Below are positions 30,991 to 64,000 of a stretch of DNA of 64,000 bases, piece after piece. Every line of letters starts with the position of its first letter. Position 1 is the first letter of the stretch. A program made the translations under genes and the position numbers. Location: NCBI GenBank assembly GCA_036172245.1, contig JAYWIR010000060.1:558001-622000 (forward strand), in the 5' to 3' direction. The notes beneath the pieces are model-generated. The model had not been told where the DNA came from. It did no database searches and saw only the letters and a program-made list of their open reading frames with translations. The DNA comes from Raillietiella orientalis. Its lineage: Eukaryota.

Positions 30991-31090
30991 AGGGGACGGG
31001 TTTTTGTTTTGCTCTTGAGCGTTTGTAAATTTATTTTTTTTTTCTTTTTTTTGTTGGTGTGCCAGTGGATTCGGTGGTGGCTAGGCAGCA

Positions 31091-36537: not shown

Positions 36538-39518
36538 AGCAGTGCCGACTGTTGCCACTTCATGGGGAGGGGGCGCAAGTCCATGAGCACCAGGGGCCAC
36601 TCGAAATGTTCCTCTGGAACACCCAGTAGCTCTCCCCAGCGCAAGAGTTTATTTGGGTCGCAGCGTTGGTGAGCTGACCTGTTCTCCAATCCCCGATCAT
36701 CTTTGCCCTGCTGGCGATCTTGAGAGTGACCTCCTATTGTGCCGCGACGTCGCTGCCCAGATGTTCCCGTAGGGTGGGCAGTACCGCAGCAAGGGAGGTT
36801 CTTTGTGCCCACGCACTTCTTCGGGGATTCTCGATGATTTCTCGGAGCGTGCGGCGGGCATGCGGCCCGAACAGAGCTATTCGCTCGTGTTGCGGGCTCT
36901 GCTCCTGAATCATCGCCCACGTGCGGACGGTTTCCTGCAACCAGGCAGGACCGTTCGCGGGGCGTCCGAGGATCCGCGCCGAGTTGTTCTTCACAAGCTT
37001 GGCCGCCCTCCGAAGTTGAAGTCCGCAGTGGCAGATGGGGCTTCGGAGTGCAAAGTAGGACGAGAGTCCCTCATTGCCGGTGGCCCGCTCGACGAGGAGA
37101 CGTGCAGGGAGGCACCAAGGGGTGCACCGATTTTCTGCCATAAAAGCAACAACTCGGAACTGGAGCTGTAGCTCCAGCCGCTCCAACGTCAGGAGGCCCA
37201 GACCACCATCCCGACGAGGAGCGCACAAGTCCGAAAGACGGACTCGGGGCCTCCCTCTGCCCCAAAGGGGGATCCTCAGGAGGTCCTTCGTCCTCTTCTT
37301 TGACTCAGCTGAGGGGGGACAAACAAAAAGCAAGGGGCGAAGGAGGGGAGCCGCAAACGCGTTCCACGCCGCGGCCCGTTCATACAGGAAGAACCTGCCG
37401 TCCTGGAACGGGCCGATCGCCTCCTGAGCCTTCTGAAGGAAGCCGGACCACGCTTCCGCAGGGGAGTAATCCCCCAACGGCACACCAAAGTACTTGAAGT
37501 ACCTCACCGTGGGGATCCCCAAACGGACCCAGTCCTGCTGCCCTGCCCACGCCGCTCCGACTGGCATTACGGACGACTTCGCCCTGTTCACCGTCAGTCC
37601 TGTTCCACGACTCAGCAGGTCGAAGAAGTCCTCGACCGCCGAGGCCGGGGTGGACATAGGCAGCAGCAGCAGAAGCTCGTCCGCGTACGCCGAAACCGCA
37701 GACGTACCGGGAAAATCGCACGGCAGATGCGCCAGAGTCTCCCTGTACGCTCTCAGCACCAATTCGAAATAGGCGCTGAAGAGCAAGGGGCTGAGGCTGT
37801 CTCCCTGCCGTATGCTGCGTCGCACCGGTACGCCGTACACGGTGGATCCACTAAAAAAAACATTACTAAGCGCGTCGCGCCAGCTGGAGCGCAGGTAGGC
37901 CAGCAAAGAGGCCGGGAAGCCCAAGCGTTCCAGAAGCTCCAGCAGGAGATTCTGTTCGACGCAATCGAATGCTTTATGCAAATCGACTGCGACCGCGAGG
38001 GCTCCTCTCCCCTCCCGACCATCCCGTCCCCGACCAACGGACGCAACGGAATTCCGGATGTTTATTATGCTCCTTCCTTGTTGGAGCTCTAACCATGTGG
38101 AAGCGTGCAACAGGTTCGCCTCCATACTTCGCACGGGAACAGCATATGTCTGTTCCGAGCTGATGAAGATTTTGGCGACCCGTCCCAGGCGCTCTGCCCA
38201 AACCTTACTTAGCAACATGGCGTCCGCATTCACTATTGTGATGGGACGCCAGTACTTCATGCTCCTAAGGTCTCCTCCCTTAGGGAGGAGCAGCACCTTT
38301 GCTGAACGAAACGAGGTGGGAACGTCACCTGTTTCGCGGATCAGCTAGGTGAGCTGATGTACCAGGGGAGTAAGCTCTGCCGCGAAAGTTTGATAAAACT
38401 CCGCGGGCAGGCCGTCCTCCCCTGCAGCCTTCCGCCTCTTGAGCTTTCCGATGGCCGAGAGGATCTCGTCCATCGTGAAAGGCTCGTCGAGGCTTCTTTT
38501 CTCCTCCTCCCCGATCGCTGGAGCACCTTCCGGAAGCAGAAGTCGTGAGACGTCTCGCTCCGGAGGCGCCCTGGCGTACAGGGAGGAGTAAAATTTCCTC
38601 ACTATCCCGCGTTTCTGAGCGGGAACCGAGTGCTCCCGGCCCTGGTCGTCAAGCAAGCTGGCCGACCCGGATTGCCAGGCTTGCCTCTCAGCTCCCGCTC
38701 GATACTCTGCTAACCTGCGCATGTCGGGGGTTCTCGCGTAACGTCGGGCCTGAAGATAGCACCTTTCGTTACGCGGCCCCTCCCCAAATCCCGCAGGTAG
38801 GCGATGCAGGGGGAACTGATCGCAGAACTCCTGGACCGACCGCTTGAAGCGGTCCCAGTCCTGAAGTGTCTGCATTCTGAAGCTCCTGATAAACGCGCGG
38901 AGGTGCTCCGCCGCGTCGGAAAACTTCAGCCAGTCCCCTGGCAGACGCCACGCTGACGAGGGGGGGCCCTTGTCGCGCAAACGCACTTCGAACATGATCC
39001 GACCATGGTCCGACAGCTCGGATGGTACCTTGCCGCGCCTGCCCACCCGAGAGCATAGGTGCTGATCAAGGTACACGTGATCGATGCTGCTTTCCATGGC
39101 CGTGTCCCCGGCCAACAAGTTGCGCGTGTTCATTTCTGCGCACAACTCGTTGACGCGGTCGTTCAGTGTATCAGGCGCACCTGAAAGCAGGCGCAGGTTG
39201 AAATCACCTGCGATCAGGTGCGCTTTGCGAACTCCTGCATCGGTCAGCCAATCGCGTCTCAGGGCAAGGTAGAATTCCCTTCTTGCCTTCGCCCTCAACG
39301 CGTTGATTCCGCTAGGAGCGTATAGGTTGGTGACGACCAGGTCGATAGAGTCGGACCAGCTGAGAGTCAGCTGACCGACGCGACCTGCGTCATCGAAACG
39401 AACGTCCTTTATTGCGGTCTCGATGGCTGGCCGAAGCAGGAAGGCGACATTGCTTGATTTCGCGGTGCCGCAACGCCACAACAGCCGCCCACCCGAGATC
39501 CGTTCGATCTCCCGGGCT
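36538..39518 (-). mobile_element. E9 (3' piece): ORF2 of element split by E10; its 3' end is replaced by E8
   Basis: ORFs 38345..39481 and 36734..38296 (APE, RT with YADE); near-identical to E12; continues from 51083-52977 across the duplication ATCTCCCGGGCT. Confidence 0.93.
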
Positions 39519-39635
39519 CGTACAGTGCAGACGTGTTTCCGCGTCTATCCGCGCCAACGATCGGGCAACTTTGTGCCTGCGTTTTTGCTCGAACTTGTGT
39601 GTTCCTGTGCAATCTGCCAAGTAGCATAGTGCAAC

Positions 39636-40916
39636 ATGCCCAGTACACAGGATAGTGTGGAGGAGCAAGCCACTGGATGCACTTCAGCTGCACTTGAAGT
39701 GGCCGCATCCTCCGTAATGGTTTCCTCGCCCCCGGTGCGGAGTTACGCCGCCGTTACCTCCCGAAGACCAGGACCCTGCGATGCGGAGTTCCAGGCATAT
39801 GTGTCATCAGGATACATGCCTGCACTCCGTTATAAGGTCAGTGGGCCACTTAACGGGAGAATCGGTCGTGAGCTCAATGATGAGCTCGTCCGGATAGGCG
39901 TTCGCGAGGAGGAACTCCTTGCCATAATGCCTGCTGGCGGGATGGAATATACGAAGATTCGGTGCAAGAACGCAGCACTTGTGCAGCGCCTTCTCCGTAC
40001 GCCGTTGACCATCAATGGCAAGGAAGTCCTACCTACCGCGATGGACGACTCTTTTGTCGTTCAATTGTGCGACATCGAACCGGAAATCTCCGACCACGAT
40101 GTCGTAAGTGTGCTGGCGAAGTTCGCCACCGTGCACGCTCTGTGGAGGAGGCCAAATCCTCTTAAGGATTTCCCCTCTGTCCACATTGGACAAGCCTCCG
40201 CGCGGATCACCGTCGCGAACAGGCGTGTTGTGCCTGAGCAGCTGCAGGTGAACGGCACGGTCGTTCACCTGTGGTTCATAAGCCAGACTCGCGCGTGCGA
40301 GCAGTGCGGCAAGGAGGGCCATCGAATTAAAGAGTGCCCCTCTCCAAGATGCCGCTATTGCAAAGATTCGGGGCACGAAATCAAAAAGTGCCCGGTACTT
40401 GCAAGAAAAAGAGCCGCAGCGGAAATTCGTCGGGTTCAAGAGACCACTGCACGAAAAGCCGCAGCGGCAAATAAAAAACGTCGTCCGCAAAAACTCGAAA
40501 AAAACCACGAGCGATCTGCGGATAAAAAGAAAGCATCCCCGCCCGCAACGCCCCGAAAGGGGAAAGTCACAGCGGGGAAACCAATTAAAAAGGGGCGCGA
40601 GGGTTTGACGCGTGCCGTGCCTTCCCTCTCTGCCGAACTCGCAGGCACCTTTCCGAGCCTGGAACCAGGAAATCTCCGTAACACCCTGGAGGGAAAGGTA
40701 GGAAAACAGGAAGATCGCAACAGTGCAAAGACATCTTGCGCCGTTCCGTTGTCCCTTCGGAGTTCCGGACAGCCCCACTGCAGCGCAGGCCCCACTGCAA
40801 AGGCTACGAAAGCCGTAAAAAGCAGCGTCGCGACGAGCAAAAGCACGCTGCATGCAGTCGCCCCATCGCCGACTCGGCAGGTTTCCCCAAGTCCCACAAG
40901 GGGTGGGGTAAGTTCA
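39636..40916 (+). pseudogene. E10 ORF1, N-terminal part (resumes at 46507-47179)
   Basis: Knuckles CEQCGKEGHRIKEC and CRYCKDSGHEIKKC; reads ..SPTRGGVSS|PTRQERRDL in frame once E11 is removed. Confidence 0.88.
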
Positions 40917-41015
40917 TTTTTCTATAAAAATACAAAATTTACATTCGCACTCTCATTCACTCAAGACAAACATTTTGTAGTTGGGGGTCCTTGGGTTGCA
41001 CTAGAGTTCTGCTTT

Positions 41016-44000
41016 TCAGGGGGGAATTCCAGCTGGATGGTCCCGGGCGTCGTCCTGGATCCTCTTCAGGATGAATTGGTACGTCCAGGCGTGGATCTTC
41101 CCGCAGTTCCTGATGCCGATTTCCCTCTTCAGGAGCCCTTGTAGGATCTCCATCGGTGGTGCGACTCTCCTGGCTTTCCTCATTTTCCACCACCGCACAA
41201 GTATGGCGGTGATGAAGAGGGCTATGGTCTTCCTCACCATGGGATTGTAACAGGGAACATTACCATCCCAATGAAACATCCCGGCGAGGATCTCCATAAT
41301 GGACTTGTTGGTAAGTCCTATGATCCTTTTCAGGATCAGCCAGTCATGCAGCAGTGTGGGACACGTCAAGACGTGAAGTCTCGTGTCGTCGTCTCCACAT
41401 GCTGCGCAGTCTCGGTCTTCCCGTCTTCCTGTAAAGTGCTGCAATCGGGACCCACTCTGGATTCCTCCGTGATAAAACATCAGGAGGTCATCCTGGGTGC
41501 CCGGCGGAAGGTCACTCCTCCAGAGCGTCGTGCCGATCGCTAACAGGTTGAACCGTTCACTCCCGTAGCGTTCGGTGGCTTCCTGGAGGGCACAGGTGTC
41601 ACGGTCGTTTTCTTGGATAAGCCTTCGGAGGTTTGTTCTGGTTACCCTCGACCATGCGAAGTCGTTGTGGTTGAACCACACTTCGCGGGTCCTGTGGGTA
41701 AACCTTCCTAACATCATCTCTGTATACCGAAGTATACGTGTTTGATGTAGGTAGCCTCCTCGCCTCCACTCCTGGATTTGCTGTAGGGTAACTCTGGACC
41801 GCTGGTAGATCCAGCTTCTCGTGTCCGGTGGGACAGGAAGCAACCAAGGGATCACCAGGTTGGACTCGTCCTGCCAGAGTTCCCTGCTTCGCGGCACGAT
41901 CTTGATTTGGTGCTTCCGCACCAGCCGTTGCTTCCTCCTCCAGGTCGGGTCGATTCTTATCCATTCCCCTACTTTGCCTAGCAGCGCAGTCATCAGGCCT
42001 TTCGAGTTGTTAAGCAACAACGCGTAGGCCCTGTGCGCCGCATACGGCCAGTCATCCCAGTAAGTGGCAATGTCCAGGATGTGTCGCGTATCCATGATTC
42101 CCATGGAATGTGCAAGCGACTTCATCCCGGAACCGCCTTCTTCCCTGGGACGACACAGTGGTTTCAGTCTTACCCTTGGGCGATAGTGGCCCCAGAGTGT
42201 TTTTCTTTGCAGCTTGTCGAACTCCCTAGTAGTGTCCTTGTTCATCCTCGCGAAGGCCGCCCCGAAGAGCACTTTCGGAAGGAGTACTCCGTTCCATATG
42301 TTGGCCTTTCGCTTCATCCCCAGGTCCGTTCGGGTGTACTTGGCTGCTTCCTTGGCCGTTTTCCCCAGGATTTCCTTCCACAGCAGCTTCGACGCAGAGC
42401 CGTCGCCGATGTAGACTCCCAGGTACATGGCCGTGTCCACCGTACGGAATCCACTATCCGTTAGAGTGGATAGATCCAGTATTCCGACGGGCAAAAGCTG
42501 GCTCTTCTGGGAATTGATTTTTAAGCCCAAGCCCTGTTCCATCAGGTCCACCACATCCAGAAACGCACGCTGATTTTTCTCTCCCTTGATGAAGAAGAGT
42601 AGATCATTGGCGTATGCCAGATGGGTAAGACGCTGGCTATCGATGGTAATCCCGCTTAGTCGTCCGCTCTTCTCGATAAAGGACGACAACGCCTCCATAT
42701 AGATGACGAACAGCATCGGACTTAGCGAGTCGCCCTGTCGGACTCCTCGTTCCATCCTGATTGCTGCCGTCTCCTGGCCGTTGATCTTGATCCGGCAGTA
42801 CTGGTTCTGGAGTACCGCCCTCACGAAGTTGCTGAAGTGTTCCGGAAGCCCTAGCTTCTCCAGAACCTTCAGCAGCATCCCGTGGTCGATGGAGTCAAAG
42901 GCCTTCTCCATGTCAGTGAACACCAGCACCAGGTTCTCGCCGACGTATCGACTGAGTCCAACAGTGGCCTGGGCACACTTGACATTGTCCGACATGTGTC
43001 GACCTGGGACTGCACATGTCTGGACCGGAGAGATCAGCCTCGACATGACCTTGCCTAAGCGGTTGGACCAGATCTTCGCCAACCACTTGGCATCGGAGTT
43101 TAGGATCGAGATTGGCCTCCATTGGGCGATCTGGATAGAGTCGCCTCCTTTCGGCAGCAATCTCATCCGACTCTCGTAGAAGGACTGAGGTAGTCTGCCT
43201 TCTTCCCGGATGCAGAGGGTCAACTGGTGGAACAAGCGCAGGTAGGCGTGCAGGTACCGCTGATAGTGCGTGATGGGTACACTGTCAGGGCCCGCTGCCA
43301 CGTCCTTGCGAAGTTGCCCAAACGCAGTTCTCACCTCTTCTTCGGAGAACTCCTCCTCCAGTCTGTTCCCCTGGAGGTCGTCGGTCCTCTTCTCGAGATA
43401 GCTCAAGAAGGCCTGTTGACAACAGCGACACAGCTGTTGTCGCCTGAAGTGTTTCGTGTAATGCCTGTGAAAGGCATCCACGATGTCCTCAGACGACTGT
43501 CGCTTTTGGCCGTCGTACTGGATGCAGAAGATATCTGTTTCCAGATTTCTCTTCTCCAGCACGCCGACTTCCCCTTTTATGTTATTGAGGACGTACCGAC
43601 TCTCGTACTGATCAAAGTACTTTGAGAGGGAGCGATCTTGGATGTTCAGCTCCCGGTACGCCTCTTGCCTCAAGCGCCTATCCCCGAACTGCATGTTCGC
43701 AAACAGGTGTATCCTGTGTTTCAGGCTGTCCCAGTCGGCGCCTCTTCGGATTGTTGTTGCCCTCAGAATCGCCTCCAGGACAGCCTGATGTCCGGGATGC
43801 GTTTCGAAGCAGGCGGGCATGCTGATGAGCGCTGCCCTGGTGCCTTGCCTCCGCCGAGGATTCTCCGTTCTTAGGGAAAACCGCACCAGGGGGTGATCGG
43901 ACACCGTAGTCATAGTGTCGCGAAACCCCTGGATGCGGTTCCCAAGTTCGGTGCTGTGCAGGACGTGATCGATTGGCTTGTGGCTTGCTGTTCGCCCGAC

Positions 44001-44639
44001 CAGTCCGAACTCCTCGGATAGCCGTCGATACGCCGTCCTTCCTCTGGCGTCTTCCGAATGAATGATCTCATCCAAGATGTTGAGATCGCCAGCAACAATC
44101 ACGACGTCCTTAGGGGCGACCTTTTGCCGGAGTGTTGCATGCAGCGCCTCCGCACAACGATGTTTTAGCCTGTGCGGCCCGTACACGTTCACCAGGATAA
44201 GGTGAACAGTCGTGGACCAGGCCAGTCGCACGCCGATGATTCGTCCGGGTTGGGGACAGAACACTTCCAGAATAGTGGGGGCTAAGTGGTTCTTTATTAG
44301 CACCGCCACACCCTTCGTGTTCCGTTCTCCTTCGTTGACGAACATCTGCCCGTTGAATCGCCGTTCCATTCGCTGGCTTATCTCGAGAGCCATCCTGTGG
44401 GACTCCTGCAGGCACACGATGTCTTGTTGTGCGATGGTCCGCACAATCCTTCTTCTTTTTCCCTGGTCGACCACACCGTTTACGTTCCAGGAGGCGATGT
44501 TAATCCTCCTGGCGGTCGATAGGGAAGAGGCCAGAAAAGGGGAAGACCTATTTTTTGGCCTTCCTGAGCTTCTTCTGTCTGAGAGAGCGTGCTCTTCCAG
44601 ACAATGAAGAAGCAGAGGGCTTCTCGCTGCCGGCGTCAC
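41016..44639 (-). CDS. E11 ORF2: APE endonuclease + RT + C-terminal zinc finger (1207 aa open frame; YAND instead of YADD)
   Basis: IASWNVNG, CLQE, NVYGP, AGDLN, IDH, SDH; GPDS, WRPISILNSD, DMEKAFD, GVRQGDSLSP, YAND, YLGV; CAACGDDDTRLHVLTCP. Confidence 0.95.
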   Translation of the reverse strand: MTPAARSPLLLHCLEEHALSDRRSSGRPKNRSSPFLASSLSTARRINIASWNVNGVVDQGKRRRIVRTIAQQDIVCLQESHRMALEISQRMERRFNGQMFVNEGERNTKGVAVLIKNHLAPTILEVFCPQPGRIIGVRLAWSTTVHLILVNVYGPHRLKHRCAEALHATLRQKVAPKDVVIVAGDLNILDEIIHSEDARGRTAYRRLSEEFGLVGRTASHKPIDHVLHSTELGNRIQGFRDTMTTVSDHPLVRFSLRTENPRRRQGTRAALISMPACFETHPGHQAVLEAILRATTIRRGADWDSLKHRIHLFANMQFGDRRLRQEAYRELNIQDRSLSKYFDQYESRYVLNNIKGEVGVLEKRNLETDIFCIQYDGQKRQSSEDIVDAFHRHYTKHFRRQQLCRCCQQAFLSYLEKRTDDLQGNRLEEEFSEEEVRTAFGQLRKDVAAGPDSVPITHYQRYLHAYLRLFHQLTLCIREEGRLPQSFYESRMRLLPKGGDSIQIAQWRPISILNSDAKWLAKIWSNRLGKVMSRLISPVQTCAVPGRHMSDNVKCAQATVGLSRYVGENLVLVFTDMEKAFDSIDHGMLLKVLEKLGLPEHFSNFVRAVLQNQYCRIKINGQETAAIRMERGVRQGDSLSPMLFVIYMEALSSFIEKSGRLSGITIDSQRLTHLAYANDLLFFIKGEKNQRAFLDVVDLMEQGLGLKINSQKSQLLPVGILDLSTLTDSGFRTVDTAMYLGVYIGDGSASKLLWKEILGKTAKEAAKYTRTDLGMKRKANIWNGVLLPKVLFGAAFARMNKDTTREFDKLQRKTLWGHYRPRVRLKPLCRPREEGGSGMKSLAHSMGIMDTRHILDIATYWDDWPYAAHRAYALLLNNSKGLMTALLGKVGEWIRIDPTWRRKQRLVRKHQIKIVPRSRELWQDESNLVIPWLLPVPPDTRSWIYQRSRVTLQQIQEWRRGGYLHQTRILRYTEMMLGRFTHRTREVWFNHNDFAWSRVTRTNLRRLIQENDRDTCALQEATERYGSERFNLLAIGTTLWRSDLPPGTQDDLLMFYHGGIQSGSRLQHFTGRREDRDCAACGDDDTRLHVLTCPTLLHDWLILKRIIGLTNKSIMEILAGMFHWDGNVPCYNPMVRKTIALFITAILVRWWKMRKARRVAPPMEILQGLLKREIGIRNCGKIHAWTYQFILKRIQDDARDHPAGIPP

Positions 44640-50728: not shown

Positions 50729-51082
50729 GAACGGCGTAATCCGGTGACCCCTGCGACCTCTCGCCCACCCATACCCCGTCCCCGTTCGCTCGGTAAAATT
50801 TCCGGTGCCCATGCTTTTATCCGCGTGTCTTCCAGAGCGATCCCAAAGACCCTTATCCCGTCCTCCTTATTCATTGTTTTTATTTTATTTTGGTTTCGTT
50901 GTGTTTCCCACCCCCCCCACACCGTTCAAGAAACTGTTACTCTGGCCTGCGTGCCAGCAATATTCTCTTCATTCTTGTTCAGTTGTCGGTTAGGAGTTTG
51001 GTTCCCAACTGGTTTATTTTGTATAATTGCTTTTTTTCGTTATGTTATATGGAATAAACGCCCCGGCGTCACCGGGTGAGAA

Positions 51083-52977: not shown

Positions 52978-53205
52978 CTCCGGAATCTCCATTGAAACCC
53001 GGGTGCGCCGGGACGTTTATTCTAACGAATAAACTTATACAATCTGTGACTGGACCAGTAGTCCAGCCACGCCCTGGAAAGATATAGCCTGCCGGGCTAC
53101 CAGTGCGCAGACCGGCGCGGTCGACCTCGGCAGCAGAGGGGAGGGGGAACGAAACAAAAAGAAAACAAAAAAATAAACAAAAATCAGGGAGGGAGCGGGA
53201 AAGGA

Positions 53206-56200
53206 TCACAGTCTGCTGGGAGGGCCCGTCATCCTCTGGAGGATGCCGGCAAGCTGTTTCTGCTTGTGTGGTTCCAGATGGGGCCATCGCGTCGCCATCC
53301 TGAGGAAACGGGCGGCATACACGTTGGCATCCCTGTCGCTGGATCCTCCCGTCGCTTTGCTCCATGCCACGACGATCCCGCGTAGGCAGCACAGGGCTGC
53401 AAGCGAGGCCACTGGAGGCAGGGCGTCACGGACGAAAAGGGGGCGCAAGGTGTCTCTGGGGTTGCCTTCGGGGATCCCCAGGGCTGCGGCAAAGCGTTTC
53501 CACAAGGGACGGAGGGCAACCCAATCCACTAACAGGTGGGGGAGGTATTCCCTCTCCCCGCACCTGACACAATTAGGGTTGACAGCCCCCCGCGTGCAGT
53601 GGTGTCGGCGGGCGTTGCAAGGAAGCCCCAAATTCAACACCAGCAGTGCCGACTGTTCCCACTTCATGGGGAGGGTGCGCGAGTCCATGAGCACCGGGGG
53701 CCACTCGAGATGTTCCTCTGGAAGATCCAGTAGCTCTTGCCAGCGCGACAGTCCATTTGGGGTGGTCCTCGGGGTAGCATCGTTGGTGAGCTGATCCGTT
53801 CTCCAATCCCCGATCTTCTTTGCCCTGCTGGCGATCTTGACAGTAACCTCCCATTGTGCCGTGACGTCGCTGCCCAGATGTCATCGTAGGGTAGGCAGTA
53901 CCGCAGCAAGGGAGTTTTTTTGTGCCAACGCTCTCCTTCGGGGATACTCGATTTCTCGGAGCGTGCGGTGGGCATGCGGCCCAAACAGAGCTGTTCGCTC
54001 GTGTTGCGGGCTCTGCTCCTGAATCATCGCCCACGTACGGACGGTTTCCTGCAACCAGGCAGGACCGTTCGCGAAGCGTACGAGAATCCGCGCCGAGTTG
54101 TTCTTCACGAGCTTGGCCGCCCTCCGAAGATGAAGTCAGCAGTGGCAGATGGGGCTTCGGAGTGCAAAGTAGGACGACAGTCCCGCATTGCCATTGGCCC
54201 GCTCGAAGAGAAGATGTGCAGGGAGGCACCAAGAGTGCACCAATTTTCTGCCATAAAGGCAACAACTCGGAACTGGAGCTGTAGCTCCAGCCGCTCCAAC
54301 GTCAGGAGGCCCAGACCACTATCCCGAAGAGGAGCGCACAAGTCCGAAAGACGGACTCGGGGCCGCCCTCTGTCCCAATGGGCCATCCTCAGGAGGTCCT
54401 TCGTCCTCTTCTTTGACTCCGCTAAGGGGGAACAAACAAAAAGCAAGGGGCGAAGGAGGGAGGCCGCAAACGCGTTTCACGCCGCGGCCCGTTTCTGCAG
54501 GTAGCACCTGCCGTCCTGGAACGGGCCGATCGCCGCCTGAGACTTCTGAAGGCAGCCCGACCACGCTTCCGCAGGGGAGTAGTCCCCCAACGGCACACCC
54601 AGTTACTTGAAGTACCTCACCGTGGGGATCCCCAAACGGACCCAATCCTGCTGCCCTGCCCACGCCGCTCCGACTGGCATTACGGACGACTTCGCCCTGT
54701 TCACCGTCAGTCCTGTTCCCCGACTCAGCAGGTCGAAGAACTCCTCGACCGCCGCAGCCGGGGTGGACATAGGCAGCAGCAGCAGAAGGTCGTCCGCGTA
54801 CGCCGAAACCGCAGGCGTACCGGGACAGTCGCACGGCAGGTGCGCCAGAGTCTCCCTGTACGCTCTCAGCACCAATTCGAAATAGGCGCTGGAGAGCAAG
54901 GGGCTGAGGCTGTCTCCCTGCCGTATGCCGCGTCGCACCGGTACGCCGTACACGGTGGATCCACTAAAAAAAACATTAATAAGCGCGTCGCGCCAGCTGG
55001 AGCGCAGGTAGGCCAGCATAGAGGCCGGGAAGCCCAAGCGTTCCAGAAGCTCCAAAAGGAGATTCTGGTCGACGCAATCGAATGCTTCATGCAAATCGAC
55101 TGCGACCGCGAGGGCTACTCTCCCCTCCCGAGCATCCCGTCCCCCACCGACGGACGCACCGGAATTACGGTTGCCTATTATGCTCCTTCCTTGTTGGAGC
55201 TCTAACCATGTGGAAGCGTGGAACAGGTTCGCCTCCATACTTCGCCCGGGAACAGCATATGTCTGTTCCGAGCTGATGAAGATGTTGGCGACCCGTCCCA
55301 GGCGCTCTGCCCACAGCTTGGCTAGCAACTTGGCGTCCGCATTCACTGTTGTGATGAGACGCCATTTGTTCATGCTCCTTAGGTCTCCTCCCTTCGGGAG
55401 GAGCCGCACCTTTGCTGAACGAAACGAGGTGGGAACGTCACCTGTTTCACGGATCAGCAAGGTGAGCTGATGTACCAGGGGAGTAAGCTCAGCCGCGAAA
55501 GTTTGGTAAAACTCCGCGGGCAGGCCGTCCTCCCCTGGAGCCTTCCGCCTCTTGAGCTTTCCGCTGGCCGAGAGGATCTCGTCCATCGTGAAAGGCTCGT
55601 CGAGGCTTCTTTTCTCCTCCTCCCCGATCGCTGGAGCACCTTCCGGAAGCAGAAGTCGTGAGACGTCTCGCTCCGGAGGCGCCCTGGCGTACAGGGAGGA
55701 GTAAAATTTTCTTACTATCCCGCGTTTCTGAGCGGGAACCGAGTGCTCCCGGCCCTGGTCGTCCAGCAAGCTGGCCGATCCGGATTGCCAGGCTTGCCTC
55801 TCGGCTCCCGCTCGGTACTCTGCTAACCTGCGCATGTCGGGGGTTCTCGCGTAACGTCGGGCCTGAAGATAGCACCTTTCGTTACGCGGCCCCTCCCCAA
55901 AACCCGCAGGTAGGCGATGCAGGGGGAACTGATCGCAGAACTCCTGGACCGACCGCTTGAAGCGGTCCCAGTCCTGAAGTGTCTGCATCCTGAAGCTTCG
56001 AATAAACGCGCGGAGGTGCTCCGCCGCGTCGGGAAACTTCAGCCAGTCCCCTGGCAGACGCCACGCTGACGAGGGGGGGCCCTTGTCGCGCAAACGCACT
56101 TCGAACATGATCCGACCATGGTCCGACAGCTCGGATGGTACCTTGCCGCGCCTGCCCACCCGAGAGCATAGGTGCTGATCAAGGTTACATGATCGATGCT

Positions 56201-56779
56201 GCTTACCATGGCCGTGTCCCCGGCCAACAAGTTGCACGTCATTTCATTTCTGCGCACAACTCGTTGACGCGGTCGTTCGGTGTAACCGGCGCGCCCCTGA
56301 AAGCGGAGGCGCAGGTTGAAATCTTGCGGTCAACTGCGTGCCATTGCATCGGTCAGCCAATCGCGTCTCCGGACAAGGTAGAACTCCCTTCTTGCCTTCG
56401 CCCTCAACGCGGCGTTTCCGCTAGGAGCGTATAGGTTGGTGACGACCAGGTCGATAGAGTCGGACCAGCTGAGAGTCAGCTGACCGACGCGACCTCAGTC
56501 ATCGCACCGAACGTCCTTTATTGCGGTCTCTATGGCTGGCCTAAGCAGGAAGGCGACACCGCTTGATTTCGCGGTGCCGCAACGCCACAACAGCCGTCCA
56601 CCGGAGATCCGTTCGATATCCCGGACTTCATCTGCGGAGATCACGTGGATCCCCTGCAGCAGCACCAGGTAGAAGGATGCCAGAGTGGCGGCCACGTCAC
56701 GCATCTTGCCGTCGTCGCTTAGCCCGTTCACGTTCCAACAGGCGATCAGAAGACGACGGCGAGAGGCGATTCCCGGCAT
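53206..56779 (-). pseudogene. E12 ORF2 (APE + RT + zinc finger), disrupted
   Basis: ORFs 56495..56779, 54603..56237 (QGDSLSP, YADD), 54105..54446 and 53206..53694 (CVRCGEREYLPHLL). Confidence 0.92.
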
Positions 56780-58437
56780 TATGGCTGGGAAAGTGGCGTC
56801 GCGGCACCTGCCGCGGGGCAGGTGTAGGAAAGGTCCATCGGTACGAGGACCATCGGAACGAGGACGGAGGCCTCTTCAGGCGCCTGGGGTACCTGTTCGG
56901 CCTCCATCCTCACCATCCCCTCCGTGTCCGAGCGTGGAATTCTCTCGGGCGACGGGTCCCGGGAGTTTCTCACGCTCATGGCACCCTCGCTACCGGAAGC
57001 CATCTCTTCCCCTTCGTCGGGGGAGACGATCTTCCGGGGCATTGTGGACTTTCGTCCTGCCTTTTTGCGGGGTGCCGCGGAGATGGATGCTGTTTTTCCG
57101 GCCTTCACCTCGGGGTCGGAAGTGGCCGACTCCTGAGGGGAAGCCGGACGCCTGACGGCCTTCTTGCCAGCCTTGGGGGCAACCGGCTGCAGCGAGGCAG
57201 CCAGCTCCTCCGCGGCGCGCTCGAAGGCGACGTCATCGAGCGTGGGCTCGATGACGGACGCCGCCGCCTCGCTCCCCTCCTTGTTGACTTTGTCAACGGA
57301 GGGCTGAGCAGGGGCAGCAGCGAGTTCTTTAGCGCCGCATCCGTCGATGGCGGGAATCCGCTCTACAACGACGCAGCAGCTTTTAATTTTTTCGCGGCGC
57401 AGAGCGGTTTCGCTCCGTTTCGCCACGTTCTTTCCCTTCTTATGGGAGTTTTTCTTGGGGTCGACCTTGTGCCACCCTGGCTCTTGAACCTCGCCCTCGA
57501 CCTTTTCGGCGTTTTTCGCCGAAGTCTCGGGGCTGGCCTTCGCCTTGGTGACGGAGGTGACTCCCTTAGCAGCAGCACGAGCTGCCAGCTTCTTCCTTTT
57601 TTTAGCCGCGCGCTTTCTCGCGTTTTTCGCGGACACGACGCGGACTGTGTTTTGTGGGCACACCAGACGGGTGTGCCCCGCTTGTTTGCATTGCTGGCAC
57701 TGCACGCTCGGACACCTCATTTTAAGGTGACCAAAGCTGCTGCAGCAGCCGCAAAACTTGGGTTTCCCCACGTACCACACGTCAACGGATTCACCGTTGA
57801 CGGTGAGTTTGTGGGGAATCTCACATCCCTCGCGAACCGTCACTCGCGCTGCACCCAGGCCGCCAAGCAACCCGTCGTAATCGACAAAAGGAGTAGGCTT
57901 GCCCCACAGCGCGTGGACAGTTGCGAATTTTCCAAATTCGTTCCGGACGGCCTCCTTCGTCATCCGGAACGTGATACCGGTCAGGTGAATGTTCACCGAC
58001 CGGTCTTCTGTTATTGGGAGAAGCCTCCGGCTGCCCATACTTACGGGGGTTCGCCGAAGTCTCTGCGCAAGAGTTGCCTCCTTGCAGATAACTTCCACAA
58101 ATTGACCCCCGCTTCTGACGGACATAGCCAGAAGCTCCTCTTTTTGTACACCGAGAGCGCGCATCGCCTGCGAAAAGGCGCGCGCGTTCTCGGGAGAATA
58201 TAAACCGCCTACCTTATATAGAAGGGGTGGGTTATACCCCTCCTCCAGGTAAGCGCGCATTTCCGCCATAGCCGCTGGCGTAGGTGCCGCAGCCACGGCG
58301 TTCCAAGCCCTGGGTAGGGCCGGGGGCGCATCCGTGCTGGCGGGAGCCTCCACTGATGCGGGAGCCCCCACCTCCATCTCCTCCGGGGGCAATGAGGTCA
58401 TCACTCCCGGATCCTCACCGGTGGTGGTATCAGGCAT
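56779..58437 (-). CDS. E12 ORF1: intact gag-like protein (552 aa)
   Basis: Open frame with RRM-like region and knuckles CGCCSSFGHLKMRC, CQQCKQAGHTRLVC; its TAA overlaps the ORF2 ATG. Confidence 0.95.
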   Translation of the reverse strand: MPDTTTGEDPGVMTSLPPEEMEVGAPASVEAPASTDAPPALPRAWNAVAAAPTPAAMAEMRAYLEEGYNPPLLYKVGGLYSPENARAFSQAMRALGVQKEELLAMSVRSGGQFVEVICKEATLAQRLRRTPVSMGSRRLLPITEDRSVNIHLTGITFRMTKEAVRNEFGKFATVHALWGKPTPFVDYDGLLGGLGAARVTVREGCEIPHKLTVNGESVDVWYVGKPKFCGCCSSFGHLKMRCPSVQCQQCKQAGHTRLVCPQNTVRVVSAKNARKRAAKKRKKLAARAAAKGVTSVTKAKASPETSAKNAEKVEGEVQEPGWHKVDPKKNSHKKGKNVAKRSETALRREKIKSCCVVVERIPAIDGCGAKELAAAPAQPSVDKVNKEGSEAAASVIEPTLDDVAFERAAEELAASLQPVAPKAGKKAVRRPASPQESATSDPEVKAGKTASISAAPRKKAGRKSTMPRKIVSPDEGEEMASGSEGAMSVRNSRDPSPERIPRSDTEGMVRMEAEQVPQAPEEASVLVPMVLVPMDLSYTCPAAGAATPLSQP

Positions 58438-58522
58438 TGCTGCCTAATCCTCCACCCACACCACGCACAAGCACCAACGGAAATGGAACTCAGGAGCAAC
58501 GAAAAGACACGTTCGCTCGACG

Positions 58523-61500
58523 CTCCGGAATCTCCAAGACTGGGACCTTTTTAAGGAATCGGTCTGGGAGTTCTGCGAGCAGTTCCCCCTGGACCGCCTG
58601 CCCGCCGGATTCGGCGAGGGTCCTCGCAACCATCGGGCCTATTTACAGGCCCGTAGGTACGAGCGAACCTCTAATGTCCGTCGCCTCGCCGAGTACCGAG
58701 CCGGGGCCGAACTCCAAGCCTGGCAATCCGGGTCGGCCAGCTTGCTGGCCGACCAGGGCCGGGAATGTTCGTCCCCGGCGTCGGTACGGCATCTCGTGCG
58801 GAGTTTTTATTCCTCCCTTTACGCCAGGGAGCCCCCGGATCAAAACGCCTCTAAGCGCTTGCTTCCGGATGGCGCCCCGGCAATAGGGGTGGAGGAGATG
58901 GAAAGCCTCGACGAGCCTTTCACCACCGGCGAAATTCTCGTCGGTATCAAAAGGCTGAAGAGGCGTAAAGCTCCAGGGGAAGACGGCTTGCCCGCGGAGT
59001 TGTTTCAGAGCTTCGCGGAAGAGCTGGCACCCCTGCTGCTTAAGTTGATCAGGCTGATCTGAGAGTAAGGCGATGTTCTCGCCTCGTTTCGTTCAGCGAG
59101 AGTGAGGCTCCTTCCGAGAGGGGGAGACCTCAGGGATTTAAAGAACTGGCGTCCGATCACGATCCTGAATACGGACGTTAAGTTGATAGCAGGGCTATGC
59201 ACTTCGCCTCTGGGGCAGGTGGCAGAACCCGTAATTAGCCCGGAGCAGACTTATGCTGTTCCCGGGCGAAGTATGGATGCCAACCTATTGTTCGCAAGCA
59301 CATGGGTGCACCTGCAGAGAAGAGAAAAGAAAGGGATAGGGAAAGTCGGCAACCCCACATTGGGGCAACCAGCCGGGCTGGGAAAGGAACCCCGGGCGGG
59401 GAAGGGGGCCCTAGCGCTCGCAGTCGACCTCCACAAGGCGTTCGACTGTGTAGACCAGGAACTCCTCTTGGAGCTCCTGGGTCGCTTGGGCTTCCCACCG
59501 TCCCTGATTTCCTACCTGTGCTCTTGCTGGCGGAAAGCGATGATTACCGTCTCTTTCAGCAGTCAAAAGGTGTATGGCGTGCCGGTGCGGCGGGGCATAA
59601 GGCAGGGAGATAGCCTCAGCCCGTTGCTCTTCAGCACCTACTTTGAGTTGGTGCTAAGAGCGTACAGGGTGACTTTGGCCCCATTGCCGAGCTCGTGCCC
59701 CGGCACGCCCGCCGTAGCAGCGTACGCCGAGGATCTGCTTTTGTTGCCAATGTCAACCCCGGCGAAGGCGGTCGGAGACTTCTTCGATCTGCTCAGCCGC
59801 GGAACCGGACTGCAGTTTAACAGGGCGAAGTCGTCGGTTGTGCCAATAGGTGCGGAGTGGGCAGAACAGCAGGACTGGGTCCGTCCGGGGATCCCCACGG
59901 CGAGTTGCTTCAAGTACCTTGGTGTGCCGTTGGGGGACTACTCCCCTGCGGAAGCGTGGTCCAGCTGCCTCCAAAAAGTCGAGACGGCAATCGGCCCGTT
60001 CCTGGAAGGCAAGTATCACCTGCCGGAACGGGCCGCGGTTTGGAACGCCTTCGCGGCCCCCATCCTCCGCCCCTTGCTTTTTGTTTGCCCCCCCACCGTG
60101 GAATCCAAGAAGAGGACGAAGGACCTCCTCCGTATCGCCCTTTGGGGCAAGGGGAGGCCCCGAGTCTCACTGAAGGACTTGTGCGCTCCGCGTCGGGACG
60201 ACGGTCTTGGCCTCCTGACGCTGGAGCGCGTGGAGAAGCAGCTGCGGTGGCGAACCCTCGCCATCGCAGCGAAGTTGTGGAGCACCCCTTGGTGCACTCC
60301 GGCCCGCCTTCTGGCCAGCCGTGTGTCACGGTGCGATGGACTCGCGTCTTTTCTTCTGAGCCGTGGCCGGAAGATGCGAAGATGCGGCCTACTGCTCGGG
60401 CGCATGGCAACATTGGCCAAGGAGAACAGCTGGATGGTTTGCTGCCCCGCCAACTCCCCCGCCTGGCTGCAGGAGAATATTGGAACGTGGGCAGTAGTTA
60501 ACCGGAAAAGCCACGAGACGTGGAATCGTCTCCGATGCAGCCCCTACGCCCGCTGCACGCTGCGGAATCTCCTGGAGAGTCCAGCAAGATGCACGTGGGC
60601 AGAGACGACCTGCCTAGCTACGGCGCTGCCTTTCCTAAGGAGGGCACTTCACAGCACCCGGACGCCAAGGTGGCAAGTCTCCTGTTGCATCGAGGGACGC
60701 GAGAAGTTGGTCAGCGGCTGGACAACAGGAGAACTGGCCGACGCCACGACCCTGAGCGTCCAGCCGCGAGGATTATAAAGAAGGGGCGAGCTGCTCGCCA
60801 TCCCCATGGATGAGCTGAAGTGGCCCCCGATGATGAAAGAATTTAGGATCCTGCCCCTAAAGTGGCAAGAGTCGGCGTTGCTTTTGTTGCACTGGGGTCT
60901 ACCCTGCAACGCGCGCCGCTTCCACTGGACGAGGGGAGCTGTGGATCCTGCGTGTGCCAGGTGCGGGGAGCGGGAGTCGCTTCCCCACCTTATTGTGGAT
61001 TGTGCTGCCCTCCGACTCCTTTGGGAACGGTTCGGGACGACCCTCGGGCTCCCTACAGGCAGCACCCCCAGAGTCGTTCTTCAACCCCTCTTCGTGAAGG
61101 ACGCACTGCAACCAGCCGCAGCCATCGCAGCCTTGTGCTGCGTCCGTGGCATCGTGGCGGCATGGAGCGACGCCAACAACGAAGGAGTGGGTCCAAAGGT
61201 GAGGGATGTCATCCCATACGCCCAACGCTTCATGCGGAGAGCTGCCGGATGGCCGCAACTGTGGTATATCCGGACGAACCTCGAGGGCTTCCTTCAACGG
61301 ATGGGCCCTCCTCACAGCGTTTTGTGATCCCTTCTCTGCCCTCCAACTTCTTTTTGTCTGTTAATTTTTTATTTTTCTTTTTGTTTTATCCCCATCCCCC
61401 TTCGCTGCTGAGGAACGCTACGCTGGGCTGCGTCCCGCCGTCCTGGCAGGTACAGTGTATATGGCCGTGAGCAGGGCCTTGTACCGCGGATCTAGAGTTT

Positions 61501-61534
61501 TACCAATAGACGCCCCGGGCGTACCCGGGTGTAA
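58523..61534 (+). mobile_element. E13: Tx1-like ORF2 from linker to end + 3' UTR (host of E9/E12)
   Basis: Starts LRNLQDWDLFK; PGEDGLP, NWRPITILN, QGDSLSP, YAED, CARCGERESLPHL; ORF2 ends 61327; terminus AATAGACGCCCCGGGCGTACCCGGGTG. Confidence 0.93.
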
Positions 61535-62081
61535 GCCTCCAAGGCTGGCAAGAAGGCCGAAAGGCGTCTGGCCTTTCCTCAGGAATCCCGCACTTCCGAC
61601 CCCGAGGTGGAGGCCAGAAGCGCAGCTTCCGTTTCCATGGCACCCTGCAAGAAGACTGGACGTAAGTCCACAAAGAAGAGGAGGCTCGTCTCCCCCGTCG
61701 AGGGGTAAGAAATGGATTCCGCAAGCGAGGGTGCCATGAGCGTGGGAAACTAGCGGGACCCGTCGTCCGAGAGACTCCCACGCGCGGACACGGAGGGGAT
61801 GGATGGGGTGGAGGCCAAACAGGTGCCTCAGGTGCCTGAGAAGGCCAAAACCCCCATGGACATCCCTCCCGCCTCGCAAGAGGCGGGCTCCTCCTCACCG
61901 TAATCTTCCCAGCAGTAATGCCGGGACTCTCCTTCCGCCGTCGTCTGCGTATCGCCGTTTGGAACGTGAACGGCATGACAGATGCCGGCCGGAGACGAGA
62001 CATGGCCGCCCTTCTGGGGTCCTACGACCTTGCGCTGCTGCAGGAGATCCACTTTATCTGTGCAGAACAAGCGCAAGAGAT
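61535..62081 (+). mobile_element. E14: fragment spanning ORF1 C-terminus and ORF2 start, cut by E15
   Basis: KAGKKAERR..TSDPEV homologous to the E12 ORF1 tail; TAATG at 61916-61920; MPGLSFRRRLRIAVWNVNG..LQEIH. Confidence 0.9.
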
Positions 62082-64000
62082 TTCTCGCCTGTCACGCAGG
62101 GGCGTTCATTCCATATAACATAAACAAAAAAACAATTCTACAAAATAAACCAGCTGGGAACCGAACTCCCATCCAACGACTCAACAAGAATGAAGAGAAT
62201 ATTGCTGGCACGCAGGCCAGAGTAACAATTTTGCGAACGGTGTAGGGGGGGCAGGGAACACAAAGAAACCAAAATAAAATAAAAACAATGAATAAGGAGG
62301 AAGGAATAAGGGTCTTTGGAATCGCTCTGGAAGACACGGGGATAGAAGCATGGGCACCGGAAATTTTACCGAGCGTACGGGGACGGGGTATGGGTGGGCG
62401 AGAGGTCGCAGGGGTCACCGGATTACGCCGTTCTCAAAGGTTTTTAAACCGGCGATGTATGCCGGTGATGTCCTCATTCACCTTGTCACGAAGATGAGAC
62501 CACCTTGAAGCTTTCTCCATGAATTGAGCTGCAAGCAGGTGAGCCTCCCTTCGCTGCGCTGACAACTTCAGGGCGTAGCGGGCCTTCACGATGGCGCGAA
62601 CGCAACACATGGTTGCGACAATCGCGCTAACCGAAAGTCCATTTCTGCTGAAGAAGCGCCGCAGCACATCAATGGCAGTGCCTCCTTGTGGCATGATGGC
62701 CGAAGTGAGCCTTCGCCACAGTTCCCGGAGGTCACCGCAGTCCAGCAAAAGGTGCGGAAAAGACTCGATCTATCCGCACCTTAAACAGTTTGGCAAGGCA
62801 GCTCCCCCGGAAACGATGCTTCGCTGCCTATTACAGTGTAATGCACAATGTAAAAACAGCAGCACATCTTGTTTCCACTTTAGGGGGAACACGGAGCTGT
62901 CCAAACAAACGGGGGGAACCACTATCTCTACGGGGGGCACACTGAAATGTTCGCTCCACCGAAGCAGACCCTTCGCCCGATTCCGAGGAGTGGCGACTTG
63001 CACCAGATCCTTTGTCGTCCAGCTGCCGAGTAGCTTACTGACTCCCGCTATTTTGCAGGAGAACTTCCATTCCGCCGGTAGGCAACCGTCGTTGCTTGCC
63101 CTGAGGGCAGACAGCGCTGCGGCGAGTGGTGTGGCGGCCAGACGATCCGACAACTTCTTGTCCTGCATGACTTCGTCCATTTGATGACTGAGGAGAAGTC
63201 GCAGGCGTCGAAGATGTTCCAAGCGCGTTCCTTCGGAAGCTGCCCACGATGAAAAAGATTCCTGCCGCCATGCATCTATGTTCATGGGGCGGCATGAGAT
63301 CCAGCTTTGGGCTTCCAGCAGTGAGGACAGCTGCCTCAGCGGGAAGCCAAACCCTATTCTGGTGTGCCGAAAGTGGGGTAGCAACGAAAGCAGTCCCTCG
63401 CTTCCCGTGCAGCGCCTCAGGATAAGGCGTGCGGGTAAGCACCACGGCGTACACCACAGCTTGGCACAGAGCCGCAGCATGCGGAACTGCACCTGCAGTT
63501 CGATGCTGTTTAAGTCGAGGATGCCCAAGCCTGCATCCTGACGCGGCGCCACGAAATCTGTAAGTCTAACACGGGATCTTGCAGCGCCCCACAACGCTTT
63601 GCGTAGAAGACGCTGCGCCCAGACTTTGACTTCCTGGTAGGGTGGACAAACAAAAAACAGGGGGCGGAGGAGGGGGGCAACGAAGGTGTTCCAGATGTAG
63701 GCCCGTTCCGGCAAGACGAACTCGCCTCCTGAAAACGGGACAAGTGCACGTTCTGCCTTCCGAAGGCAGTCCGACCACGCTTCTATGATGCAGATGTCGC
63801 CCAACGGCACGCCAAGGTACCTGAGGTACCTGCCCGTGGGGATCCCCAGGTCGATCCAGTCGGACTGCCCCTCCCACGTCGCACCCACCGGAACAACCAT
63901 ACACTTACTCCTGTTAACGCTCACGCCCGCACCGCGACGAATCAACTCAAAGAAGCCTTCAAGCGATGTCGCCGGGGTGGACATGGGCAACAGGAGAAGC
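62082..64000 (-). mobile_element. E15: E10-family element (3' UTR + ORF2 C-terminal half), runs off the window
   Basis: ORF 62770..63990 is about 95% identical (by eye) to E10 ORF 48995..50728; same 3' UTR. Confidence 0.95.

Follow-up and report, generated by a model that had tools for sequence, protein, structure and literature searches.

Two LINE copies interrupt the endonuclease coding sequence of related LINEs at one and the same bond: probable sequence-specific insertion within a LINE nest

Background

Known site-specific LINEs target rDNA, telomeres, small RNA genes and one DNA transposon, and nested LINE clusters such as those of Zepp and Cnl1 are known only as the product of insertion into existing copies. 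The APE endonucleases of R1Bm, TRAS1 and Tx1L are reported to recognise specific sequences of about 10 bp, which in the case of Tx1L lie in another transposon (PMC1919474; PMC6719617). The R1/TRAS/SART elements, which go into 28S rDNA or telomeric repeats, form precise 3' junctions and TSDs of fixed length, and their target is described there as held constant by selection on its function (PMC1919474). In green algae Zepp and ZeppL form LINE-only clusters at putative centromeres by nested insertion into existing copies, with a local GC peak and, for Zepp, about 61% GC (PMC8226300; PMC3446292), and Chlamydomonas is described as having a single ZeppL family (PMC9940879). Cnl1 of Cryptococcus is described as inserting preferentially in its own copies, which gives rise to nested subtelomeric arrays (PMC9942834).

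The locus described here lies in a 64-kb window from Raillietiella orientalis, by which we mean the whole stretch of DNA analysed (64,000 nucleotides). The family under study, which we call T (elements E10 and E15), is like Tx1L of Xenopus laevis, which inserts into the Tx1D DNA transposon, in being an APE and RT LINE with its target inside another transposable element. The T target is however the endonuclease coding sequence of a related LINE, entered antisense and across hosts 23% apart, and the likeness is one of description. T would share with R1/TRAS/SART the precise 3' junction, the fixed-length TSD and a target held constant by selection on its function, but its target is another selfish element and not a multicopy gene of the host cell. 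The surrounding nest is LINE-only and GC-rich like those of Zepp/ZeppL, whereas it holds at least five families, and the cited descriptions of Zepp speak of targeting of existing copies and of 3'-end arrays, with nucleotide-exact sites in coding motifs and cross-family targeting absent from them. As in Cnl1, insertion is into existing LINE copies; Cnl1 is described as inserting in tandem into itself whereas T inserts antisense in a different family. By analogy the specificity of T appears to resemble that of Tx1L and R1-type elements, combined with nesting of the Zepp and Cnl1 type.

Results

The nest of elements with APE and RT domains extends from ~23.8 kb to the end of the window, covering at least 40 kb at a GC of about 0.55-0.61 and including at least five LINE families or lineages. 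Each of the nine 3' junctions mapped in this part (23.8-64 kb) falls within another LINE copy, whatever the family, and five copies (E3, E4, E6, E13 and E14) are 5'-truncated. Besides T we distinguish H1 (E9 and E12), H2 (E8 and E3) and the H3 lineage (E14), and we refer to the target bond of E10 and E15 as site A and to that of E8 and E3 as site B.

Pfam matches to Exo_endo_phos and RVT_1 were found in ORF2 of the element N (7.2e-18 and 3.9e-31) and in E9 (6.1e-6 and 7.3e-17), while E10 matches RVT_1 (1.7e-8) and its APE match falls below threshold (E 7.8e-4, 19.7 bits versus a cutoff of 24.5) because of frameshifts. By regular expression and Pfam there are two to three CCHC knuckles in ORF1 of E10, E12 and N; ORF2 of E10, E8 and N has CX2C-X7/8-H-X4-C close to its C-terminus. 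With an APE and RT ORF2, a CCHC ORF1, TSDs and 5' truncation the elements fit APE-type non-LTR elements (LINEs) of L1-like architecture, except in respect of poly(A). A poly(A) or A-rich 3' tail is typical of L1, but no poly(A) tail is present in any of the nine aligned 3' ends of the nest, all of which read AATAAACGYCCCGG-N5-CCGGGTG followed by 2-5 bases, mostly ending AA. The T family, represented by two decayed copies, has an ORF1 with two CCHC knuckles, an ORF2 with APE, RT and a C-terminal CCHC, and the 3' end AATAAACGCCCCGG-N5-CCGGGTGAGAA, also without a poly(A) tail. T and H2 proteins share 49% identity over 580 residues. The nearest named proteins, L1-like ones of Closterium, a turtle and a plant, do not exceed 34% identity; apart from these the closest library protein is an unnamed JGI protein (P0001, 73%), and a language-model search offers a lead by placing the studied ORF2 near clusters labelled TX1/zf-RVT.

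The whole of E10 (39519-51082, plus strand) splits ORF2 of the minus-strand E9 after codon ~55. On its left lies E9a (36538-39518, minus strand), the 3'-ward part of the host with the APE and RT portions of ORF2 (Exo_endo_phos at 38345-39544, RVT_1 at 36734-38344), which aligns with E12 53642-56627 at 93.1% and is truncated at 36538, where the E8 3' end abuts it. On its right E9b (51083-52991, minus strand) carries the 5' UTR and ORF1 of E9 and its ORF2 as far as codon ~55, as indicated by translation and by 94.1% identity to E12 56616-58536. E10 is itself divided. Its left arm (39519-40881, plus strand), at the edge of which (39520) a contig of the public run X1 begins, holds the 5' UTR and ORF1 with two CCHC knuckles (zf-CCHC match on the ORF at 39636-41144). 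Inside this ORF1 and antisense to it lies N (40882-46506, minus strand), an intact LINE of an unrelated family with an ORF1 of 588 aa and an ORF2 of 1227 aa, flanked by a 13-bp TSD, CCGACTCGGCAGG (40869-40881 and 46507-46519); an X1 contig spans the N/E10 boundary (40574-41168). The right arm (46520-51082, plus strand) comprises the remainder of ORF1, ORF2 with APE, RT, C-terminal CCHC and frameshifts, recognised from tblastn pieces in three frames, Pfam and the CCHC motif, and a 3' UTR terminating in AATAAACGCCCCGGCGTCACCGGGTGAGAA.

The TSD of E10, ATCTCCCGGGCT, is perfect over 12 bp (39507-39518 and 51083-51094). In E12 (52992-58536, minus strand), a full-length element of H1 and the twin of E9, we find site A uninterrupted; it reads ATATCCCGGACT at 56616-56627, in agreement with the empty site initially reported there, and the two halves of E9 are colinear with E12 and align to it overlapping by exactly these 12 bases. 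In one X1 contig 39506 is joined to 51083 and 12 letters are compatible with either side, which is the uninterrupted form with an overlap of TSD length. Similar and unoccupied site-A sequence is also present in E8 (32869-32880).

The second host, E14 (61535-62081, plus strand), consists of an ORF1 C-terminus with ORF2 up to codon ~55 and stops at the same bond as E9, with a TSD-equivalent AGCGCAAGAGAT at 62070-62081. It is followed by E15 (62082-64000, minus strand), which includes the 3' UTR and a C-terminal stretch of ORF2, is 96.0-97.3% identical to E10 and runs past the end of the window. The 3' junction of E10 at 51082/51083 joins CACCGGGTGAGAA to ATCTCCCGGGCTTGATCTGC and that of E15, read on the minus strand at 62082/62081, joins GACAGGCGAGAA to ATCTCTTGCGCTTGTTCTGC. 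Host-sense codons up to the bond are CAA GCC CGG GAG AT in E9 and CAA GCG CAA GAG AT in E14, corresponding to the peptides LLQEIHVISADQARE(I) and LLQEIHFICAEQAQE(I), so that the two junctions share one bond and one codon register, as the initial annotation had it, and both inserts are antisense to their hosts. The two hosts differ at 5 of the 20 bases flanking the bond, yet bond and strand are identical. The 3' terminal 24-mer of the E10 type occurs twice in the window, where shuffled sequence would lead one to expect 0.00, and both occurrences, that is 2/2 E10-family 3' ends in the 64-kb window, are at site A. By our own estimate a second random insertion into a ~5.5-kb element would find that bond on that strand with odds of about 1 in 11,000.

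E10 and E15 are 96.0% identical in nucleotides (1843/1919; 97.3%, 1388/1427, in a second comparison) and 94.4% in protein (492/521), as against an earlier figure of about 95%, and the host match given as 34/55 residues is corrected to 33/54 from Met to the junction. The hosts E9 and E14 share only 77.2% of nucleotides (419/543; 77.3%, 420/543, in the other comparison), E12 and E14 76.5%, and across the junction identity drops from 97-99% to 67-80%. E9 and E12 are 96.9% identical (532/549) and E12 is empty. The independence of the E10 and E15 insertions, claimed at the outset, is well supported by these comparisons because the filled E9 is close to the empty E12 and far from the filled E14 (77.3%), and the inserts are 97.3% identical. 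The 45 differences between E10 and E15 in ORF2 are spread over codon positions as 16/14/15 with an omega of 0.72 (520 codons), a near-neutral pattern that looks like post-insertion decay from nearly one source; the 3' UTRs are more diverged (321/352, 91.2%) and E10-E15 identity declines in the last ~300 bases before the junction.

A second pair of insertions shares an exact site elsewhere in ORF2, in a motif distinct from site A. The 3' end of the full-length H2-type element E8 (31065-36537, plus strand) lies antisense in E9, and at 23768-24652 the host fragment h3 (23768-24057, plus strand) is interrupted by the 3' end of E3 (24058-24652, minus strand); both 3' ends meet AGCAGTGCCGACTGTT at one bond. 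The site-B hosts E9 and h3 are 78.2% alike and the inserts E8 and E3 80.5%, and E12, which is 89.3% identical to E9 here, is empty (53642). Site B is an independent precedent for exact-bond insertion in the same nest. E6, a 67%-identical relative of E10, is placed elsewhere, antisense in ORF1 of E5.

Discussion

These junctions are probably best explained by target-primed insertion that is specific to family and sequence and is directed at conserved coding motifs in related LINEs. Each T copy would have entered on its own, through target-primed reverse transcription at one and the same phosphodiester bond, on the sense strand of an H-type ORF2 (GAG AT^C GAA), 11 codons past the LQE motif of the host endonuclease domain. 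Following the TPRT model the first-strand nick would fall between 51082 and 51083 in the sense strand of the host (GAGAT^CGAAC), and a second nick 12 bp off would produce the 12-bp duplication around E10. Recognition would be family-specific over roughly 10-20 bp, most likely by the APE endonuclease of T itself, by analogy with the endonucleases of R1Bm, TRAS1 and Tx1L. Such a target would persist across host lineages 23% apart and offer many harmless landing sites because the host LINE must conserve the coding stretch.

There are n=2 events per site, within the 64-kb window, and the claim of sequence-specific insertion first made for this locus is partly supported, in that it fits both E10-family 3' ends there and is echoed by the sister family at site B. 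Against it, at least one X1 contig, of the kind with unrelated flanks that had been named as contrary evidence, aligns up to 51084 and continues for 17 letters of other sequence. With the 2 preceding bases these give a 17/19 match to the sense GDFNLRL-coding stretch of E9 (39186-39204), not site A, so that at least one E10-like 3' end adjoins another neighbour. This contig may represent a secondary head-to-tail junction, like two in the window. The different position of E6, the sub-threshold and frameshifted APE region of E10 and the greater divergence of the E10 and E15 3' UTRs also count against the claim.

The same contig, with a T-like 3' end beside a different stretch of LINE ORF2, is what would be seen if T inserted anywhere in a LINE cluster, for instance guided by chromatin, and a short nick motif (GARAT^) together with DNA structure made a few spots recurrent. 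That all nine mapped 3' junctions are inside LINEs regardless of family, and that E12 and E8 carry similar sites without an insert, would also fit such a regional hotspot. We nevertheless consider it unlikely, since bond and strand are identical in hosts differing at 5/20 flanking bases and a further exact pair, at site B, comes from another family. With about 9 junctions, a ~5.5-kb element and two strands, it is very improbable that a weak preference would give two such coincidences (about 28/11,000 for one pair by our own arithmetic).

Annealing of read-through target sequence has been described for R1-type elements, and source copies residing in site A could similarly yield read-through transcripts that carry the downstream target and pair with the nick. 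This would suit the end of both copies at the same base without poly(A) and is compatible with the 12-bp TSD, but a nick in the correct place would still be required first. In word matches against 500 shuffles the E10 UTRs showed no complementarity to the target beyond chance, the longest shared word being 9 bases for the 3' UTR (reached by 61/500 shuffles) and 6 bases for the 5' UTR (486/500), and we regard RNA-DNA pairing as quite improbable.

It is very improbable that one old insertion was copied as a composite of host and insert, by segmental duplication or co-retrotransposition, with later homogenisation of the inserts by gene conversion. The congruent site-B identities (inserts 80.5%, hosts 78.2%) and the falling E10-E15 identity towards the junction could be read in this way. 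LINEs however do not excise precisely, and E9 must therefore have gained its insert after its split from E12, which is empty and 96.9% like E9 when the filled E14 is at 77%; site B repeats this pattern (E9-E12 89.3%, E12 empty). The congruent host and insert history that had been proposed as a refutation is not what the site-A identities give, at 96-97% for inserts and 77% for hosts. Weakest of all, with next to no likelihood, is duplication of one junction onto another locus by the assembly. The region is highly repetitive, and X1 contigs diverge from the window by about 1.5-2.5% and stop where elements end. Many positions on both sides nevertheless distinguish the two site-A junctions, so that neither is a collapsed form of the other; E10 is complete at both ends, its TSD being perfect, and the nested N/E10 junction is bridged by an X1 contig.

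Returning to sequence-specific insertion, disruption of the host endonuclease/RT gene would be its consequence. The initial annotation spoke of the knock-out of a relative's endonuclease, and ORF2 is indeed split after ~codon 55 in two copies; this is an effect on those two host copies rather than a demonstrated function, and may be a by-product of landing harmlessly in a conserved LINE sequence. The sister family H2 (E8 and E3) would do likewise at another conserved ORF2 motif, so that the cluster appears to grow by mutual site-specific nesting. A possible reading, which we put forward tentatively, is that of a guild of related LINE families living only inside one another, each with its own exact landing site in conserved motifs of its relatives and with selection on the host enzymes keeping the target intact. 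T would land after the endonuclease LQE motif, H2 in the PLKW motif ahead of the zinc finger of ORF2 and possibly another family at FYSSLY.

What T enters here is a conserved motif in the endonuclease coding sequence of a related LINE; hosts 23% apart are interrupted at one bond, and a sister family behaves likewise at another motif. If this holds genome-wide, it would provide a sequence-level mechanism for building and confining LINE-only clusters of the Zepp-like, centromere type. If true, T would be a hyperparasite of the endonuclease gene of another retrotransposon, and confirmation would provide naturally occurring APE endonucleases whose long recognition sites are new, together with a clear example of a selfish element whose niche is kept by selection on another selfish element.

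Composition of the LINE nest

The part of the window from about 23.8 kb onwards is a nest of LINEs (non-LTR retrotransposons), in which Pfam places Exo_endo_phos (APE) and RVT_1 in long frames on both strands and zf-CCHC in upstream ORFs, while a motif check finds 2-3 CCHC knuckles in the ORF1 of all families and CX2C-X7/8-H-X4-C in the C-terminal region of ORF2. On the basis of these domains and of the best named matches, which are L1-like and come from Closterium, a turtle and a plant, the elements are classed from sequence as L1-like APE LINEs. The sole close relative found was the JGI protein P0001 (73% identity to the ORF2 of E8), all else being at or below 34%: word-indexed protein searches returned P0001 and remaining matches of at most 30% identity, the top matches of a full HMMER scan were at 27-34%, and a language-model atlas offered TX1/zf-RVT as a lead only.

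Element anatomy was established by self-comparison of the window together with protein mapping. The host element E9 (family H1, minus strand) lies in two pieces (36538-39518 and 51083-52991), with its full-length H1 twin E12 (52992-58536, minus) on one side and E8 (31065-36537, plus; family H2, 73% identity to E9) on the other. Between the two pieces of E9 is E10 (39519-51082, plus), a member of the T family, which shares 49% protein identity with H2 over 580 residues, and within E10 sits the element N (40882-46506, minus), which is intact, has a 13-bp TSD CCGACTCGGCAGG and belongs to a family unrelated to the others (only about 30% identity). Further along are E13 (58537-61534, plus), the second host E14 (61535-62081, plus; family H3) and the second T element E15 (62082 to the window end, minus), which continues past the window.

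N, apparently intact, has ORF1 (588 aa) and ORF2 (1227 aa) and is antisense within the ORF1 of E10. Because the summed contig depth over N in the public sequencing run X1 is 3-6x that of its neighbours, contig depth being a poor measure, the N family may be young and abundant. Two head-to-tail junctions, both in the same orientation, are present in the window: at 52991/52992 full-length E9 begins immediately after the 3' end of E12, and at 61534/61535 the 5'-truncated E14 immediately after the 3' end of E13. Such junctions could result from template switching between LINE RNAs or from targeting of 3' ends. Head-to-head 5'-5' junctions, with no target sequence between the partners, occur between E12 and E13 (58536/58537) and between E6 and E8 (about 30990-31065). 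The window lacks the terminal ~650 bp of E9, and several of its junctions (5'-5' and 3'-5') are incompatible with simple insertion; simple insertions alone cannot account for the nest.

To the left, in the part of the window without LINEs, lie a direct repeat pair (3839-4305 and 13624-14090, 93% identity) and an inverted repeat pair (8242-8677 and 11987-11550, 97% identity), and the long frames of this part match no Pfam family. Of 22 ORFs examined from 1.1 to 30.5 kb, 21 lack a Pfam family and the remaining one is a LINE RT. Rfam gave no match in the window, and tandem repeats were uninformative.

Two T insertions at one bond of the host ORF2

The initial annotation had claimed that E10 and E15 independently struck the same nucleotide of an endonuclease gene, and both junction sequences read as it gave them. 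A perfect 12-bp duplication, ATCTCCCGGGCT, stands either side of E10 (39507-39518 and 51083-51094), E12 keeps the empty site (ATATCCCGGACT, uninterrupted at 56616-56627), and the two halves of E9 aligned to E12 overlap by exactly the 12 duplicated bases. In host sense the two breaks share one register (E9 ...CAA GCC CGG GAG AT/, E14 ...CAA GCG CAA GAG AT/), 11 codons past the endonuclease-domain LQE motif and near ORF2 codon 55, and each insert is antisense to its own host. Over the 20-base target consensus that had been proposed, E9 and E14 disagree at 5 positions. The window contains two occurrences of the terminal 3' 24-mer of T type, where shuffles predict 0.00, and both are at this bond (site A); the same-bond observation is real and non-random.

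Inserts and hosts have diverged to very different extents. The inserts are 96.0% identical in DNA (1843/1919) and 94.4% in protein (492/521, previously put at about 95%), and the hosts 77.2% in DNA (419/543) and 33/54 residues in protein, a correction of the 34/55 given before. Along the composite, identity falls from 97-99% within the insert to 67-80% past the junction. In a 549-base host stretch by site A the filled E9 is 96.9% identical to the empty E12 and 77.3% to the filled E14 (E12 against E14, 76.5%), whereas E10 and E15 are 97.3% identical over 1427 bases. Precise excision is not known in LINEs and, with E12 empty, E9 was therefore filled after its split from E12. One ancestral composite of host and insert cannot account for the two filled sites, E12 being empty yet nearest to E9 and E14 filled yet distant. 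As judged from these sequence comparisons the E10 and E15 insertions are independent, as had been claimed.

The 45 differences between the E10 and E15 ORF2 are spread evenly over codon positions (16/14/15) with an omega of 0.72 over 520 codons, and on these grounds they look like neutral decay of two copies from nearly one source. The 3' UTRs of E10 (50729-51082) and E15 (62082-62440) are more diverged (321/352, 91.2%) than ORF2 (about 97%).

A second shared bond

The flanks of every recognisable 3' end were mapped back onto the other elements, which revealed a second exact same-bond pair (site B), formed by the 3' ends of the H2-type E8 and E3. The E8 end meets E9 at ...GGTGTAAA/AGCAGTGCCGACTGTT (36537/36538), and the end of E3 (24058-24652, minus) meets the host fragment h3 (23768-24057, plus) at ...GGTGTGAA/AGCAGTGCCGACTGTT (24057/24058). 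E12 reads ...ACACC AGCAGTGCCGACTGTT unbroken at 53642, so that site B is empty there. The inserts are 80.5% identical, the hosts 78.2%, and E9 and the empty E12 89.3%; by the same host-tree argument as at site A (E12 empty and E9-like) the two events are independent. Site B is the antisense of a PLKW(Q/E)ES motif directly ahead of the ORF2 zinc finger. A third, single event places the 3' end of E4 at 25217, antisense within the FYSSLY-coding motif of a fragment of H type. The flank of E4 there opens with the 7 bases CGTACAG, with which the E10 5' end (39519) also opens, possibly a coincidence.

By our arithmetic, with ~9 junctions, a ~5.5-kb element and two strands, the chance of one exact pair is about 28/11,000, and two exact pairs, one family each, are far less likely by chance than one.

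Evidence from public sequencing runs

Evidence from beyond the window is thin: of three public runs, X1 contained 0.42 of the sampled window words and X2 and X3 next to none; window parts without run coverage were left uninterpreted. Divergence between X1 contigs and the window is about 1.5-2.5%. One of these contigs links 39506 to 51083 with 12 letters fitting both sides, which represents the host without an insert and bears out the length of the TSD, another begins at 39520, the E10 5' boundary, and another spans the N/E10 junction.

Among the loose ends listed, one X1 contig aligns to 51084 and then carries 17 other letters. These were considered as a third insertion, 6 nt away from site A, a reading that was rejected because the 17 letters and the 2 preceding bases match a GDFNLRL-coding stretch of E9 sense (39186-39204) at 17 of 19 positions; in a control 3 of 100 shuffles yielded any such match. 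The GDFNLRL-flanked contig speaks against a strictly exclusive use of site A, but it is just as well read as a head-to-tail junction, a possible third case of a kind present twice in the window (E12 to E9 and E13 to E14).

Searches with 3' sequences gave chance matches: the shared 3' motif hit three bacterial-looking loci among metagenome contigs, with no similarity to the window, and the T-specific 3' 21-mer one AT-rich contig among prokaryote genome contigs, also with no similarity.

3' ends and a model of integration

The H- and T-type families have a common 3' terminus, AATAAACGYCCCGG-N5-CCGGGTG-NN-AA, found at 1365, 24058, 25217, 28019, 36537, 51082, 52992, 61534 and 62082, with no poly(A) in 9/9 aligned ends. 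Guidance by RNA in the UTRs is unsupported, complementarity between the E10 UTRs and the target being no greater than chance. A possible 5-bp 3' stem is conserved in sequence with 90.9% of cells paired, but covariation lends a structured stem no support (1 compensatory pair; 55/500 shuffles equally high), and the 3' ends of E10 and E15 fold with z-scores of about -0.2. The E15 stem carries one compensatory G:C to U:A change.

Precise 3' junctions, the 12-bp TSD, antisense orientation and the families' APE and RT genes are seen directly. Under the TPRT model a first nick, GAGAT^CGAAC, would open the sense strand of the host, cDNA synthesis would be primed on the 3' end of the T RNA, and a second nick would follow 12 bp from the first. 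By analogy with the R1Bm, TRAS1 and Tx1L endonucleases, which recognise ~10 bp according to excerpts of PMC1919474, the APE endonuclease of T is probably the seat of specificity. At the 5' end of E15, outside the window, the plus strand is predicted to read AGCGCAAGAGAT and then the rest of the E14 ORF2.

Relation to exact-target and nested LINEs

In excerpts of PMC1919474 and PMC6719617, R1, TRAS, SART and Tx1L are established exact-target LINEs and the target of Tx1L is another transposon. Two groups with nested LINE clusters are on record: Zepp/ZeppL of green algae, whose insertions target existing copies (PMC8226300, PMC3446292), and Cnl1, which inserts "within itself in tandem orientation" (PMC9942834). 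In contrast to these systems the hits described here are cross-family, antisense and nucleotide-exact on coding motifs and, in the principal case, the target is the start of a relative's endonuclease domain; a limited literature search of main texts found no LINE reported to target another LINE's endonuclease-coding sequence.

The proposal that insertion is sequence-specific gains from the exact shared bond and the second pair at site B and loses from the one discordant X1 contig; with two events per site, family-specific, sequence-specific targeting is likely the best explanation. The further suggestion that a relative's endonuclease is thereby knocked out holds in that the ORF2 of the host copy is split, which is a by-consequence of insertion and is shown as a consequence, not as a function. 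Both sites fall within motifs on whose conservation the host LINE depends, so that the target persists in lineages that are 23% apart.
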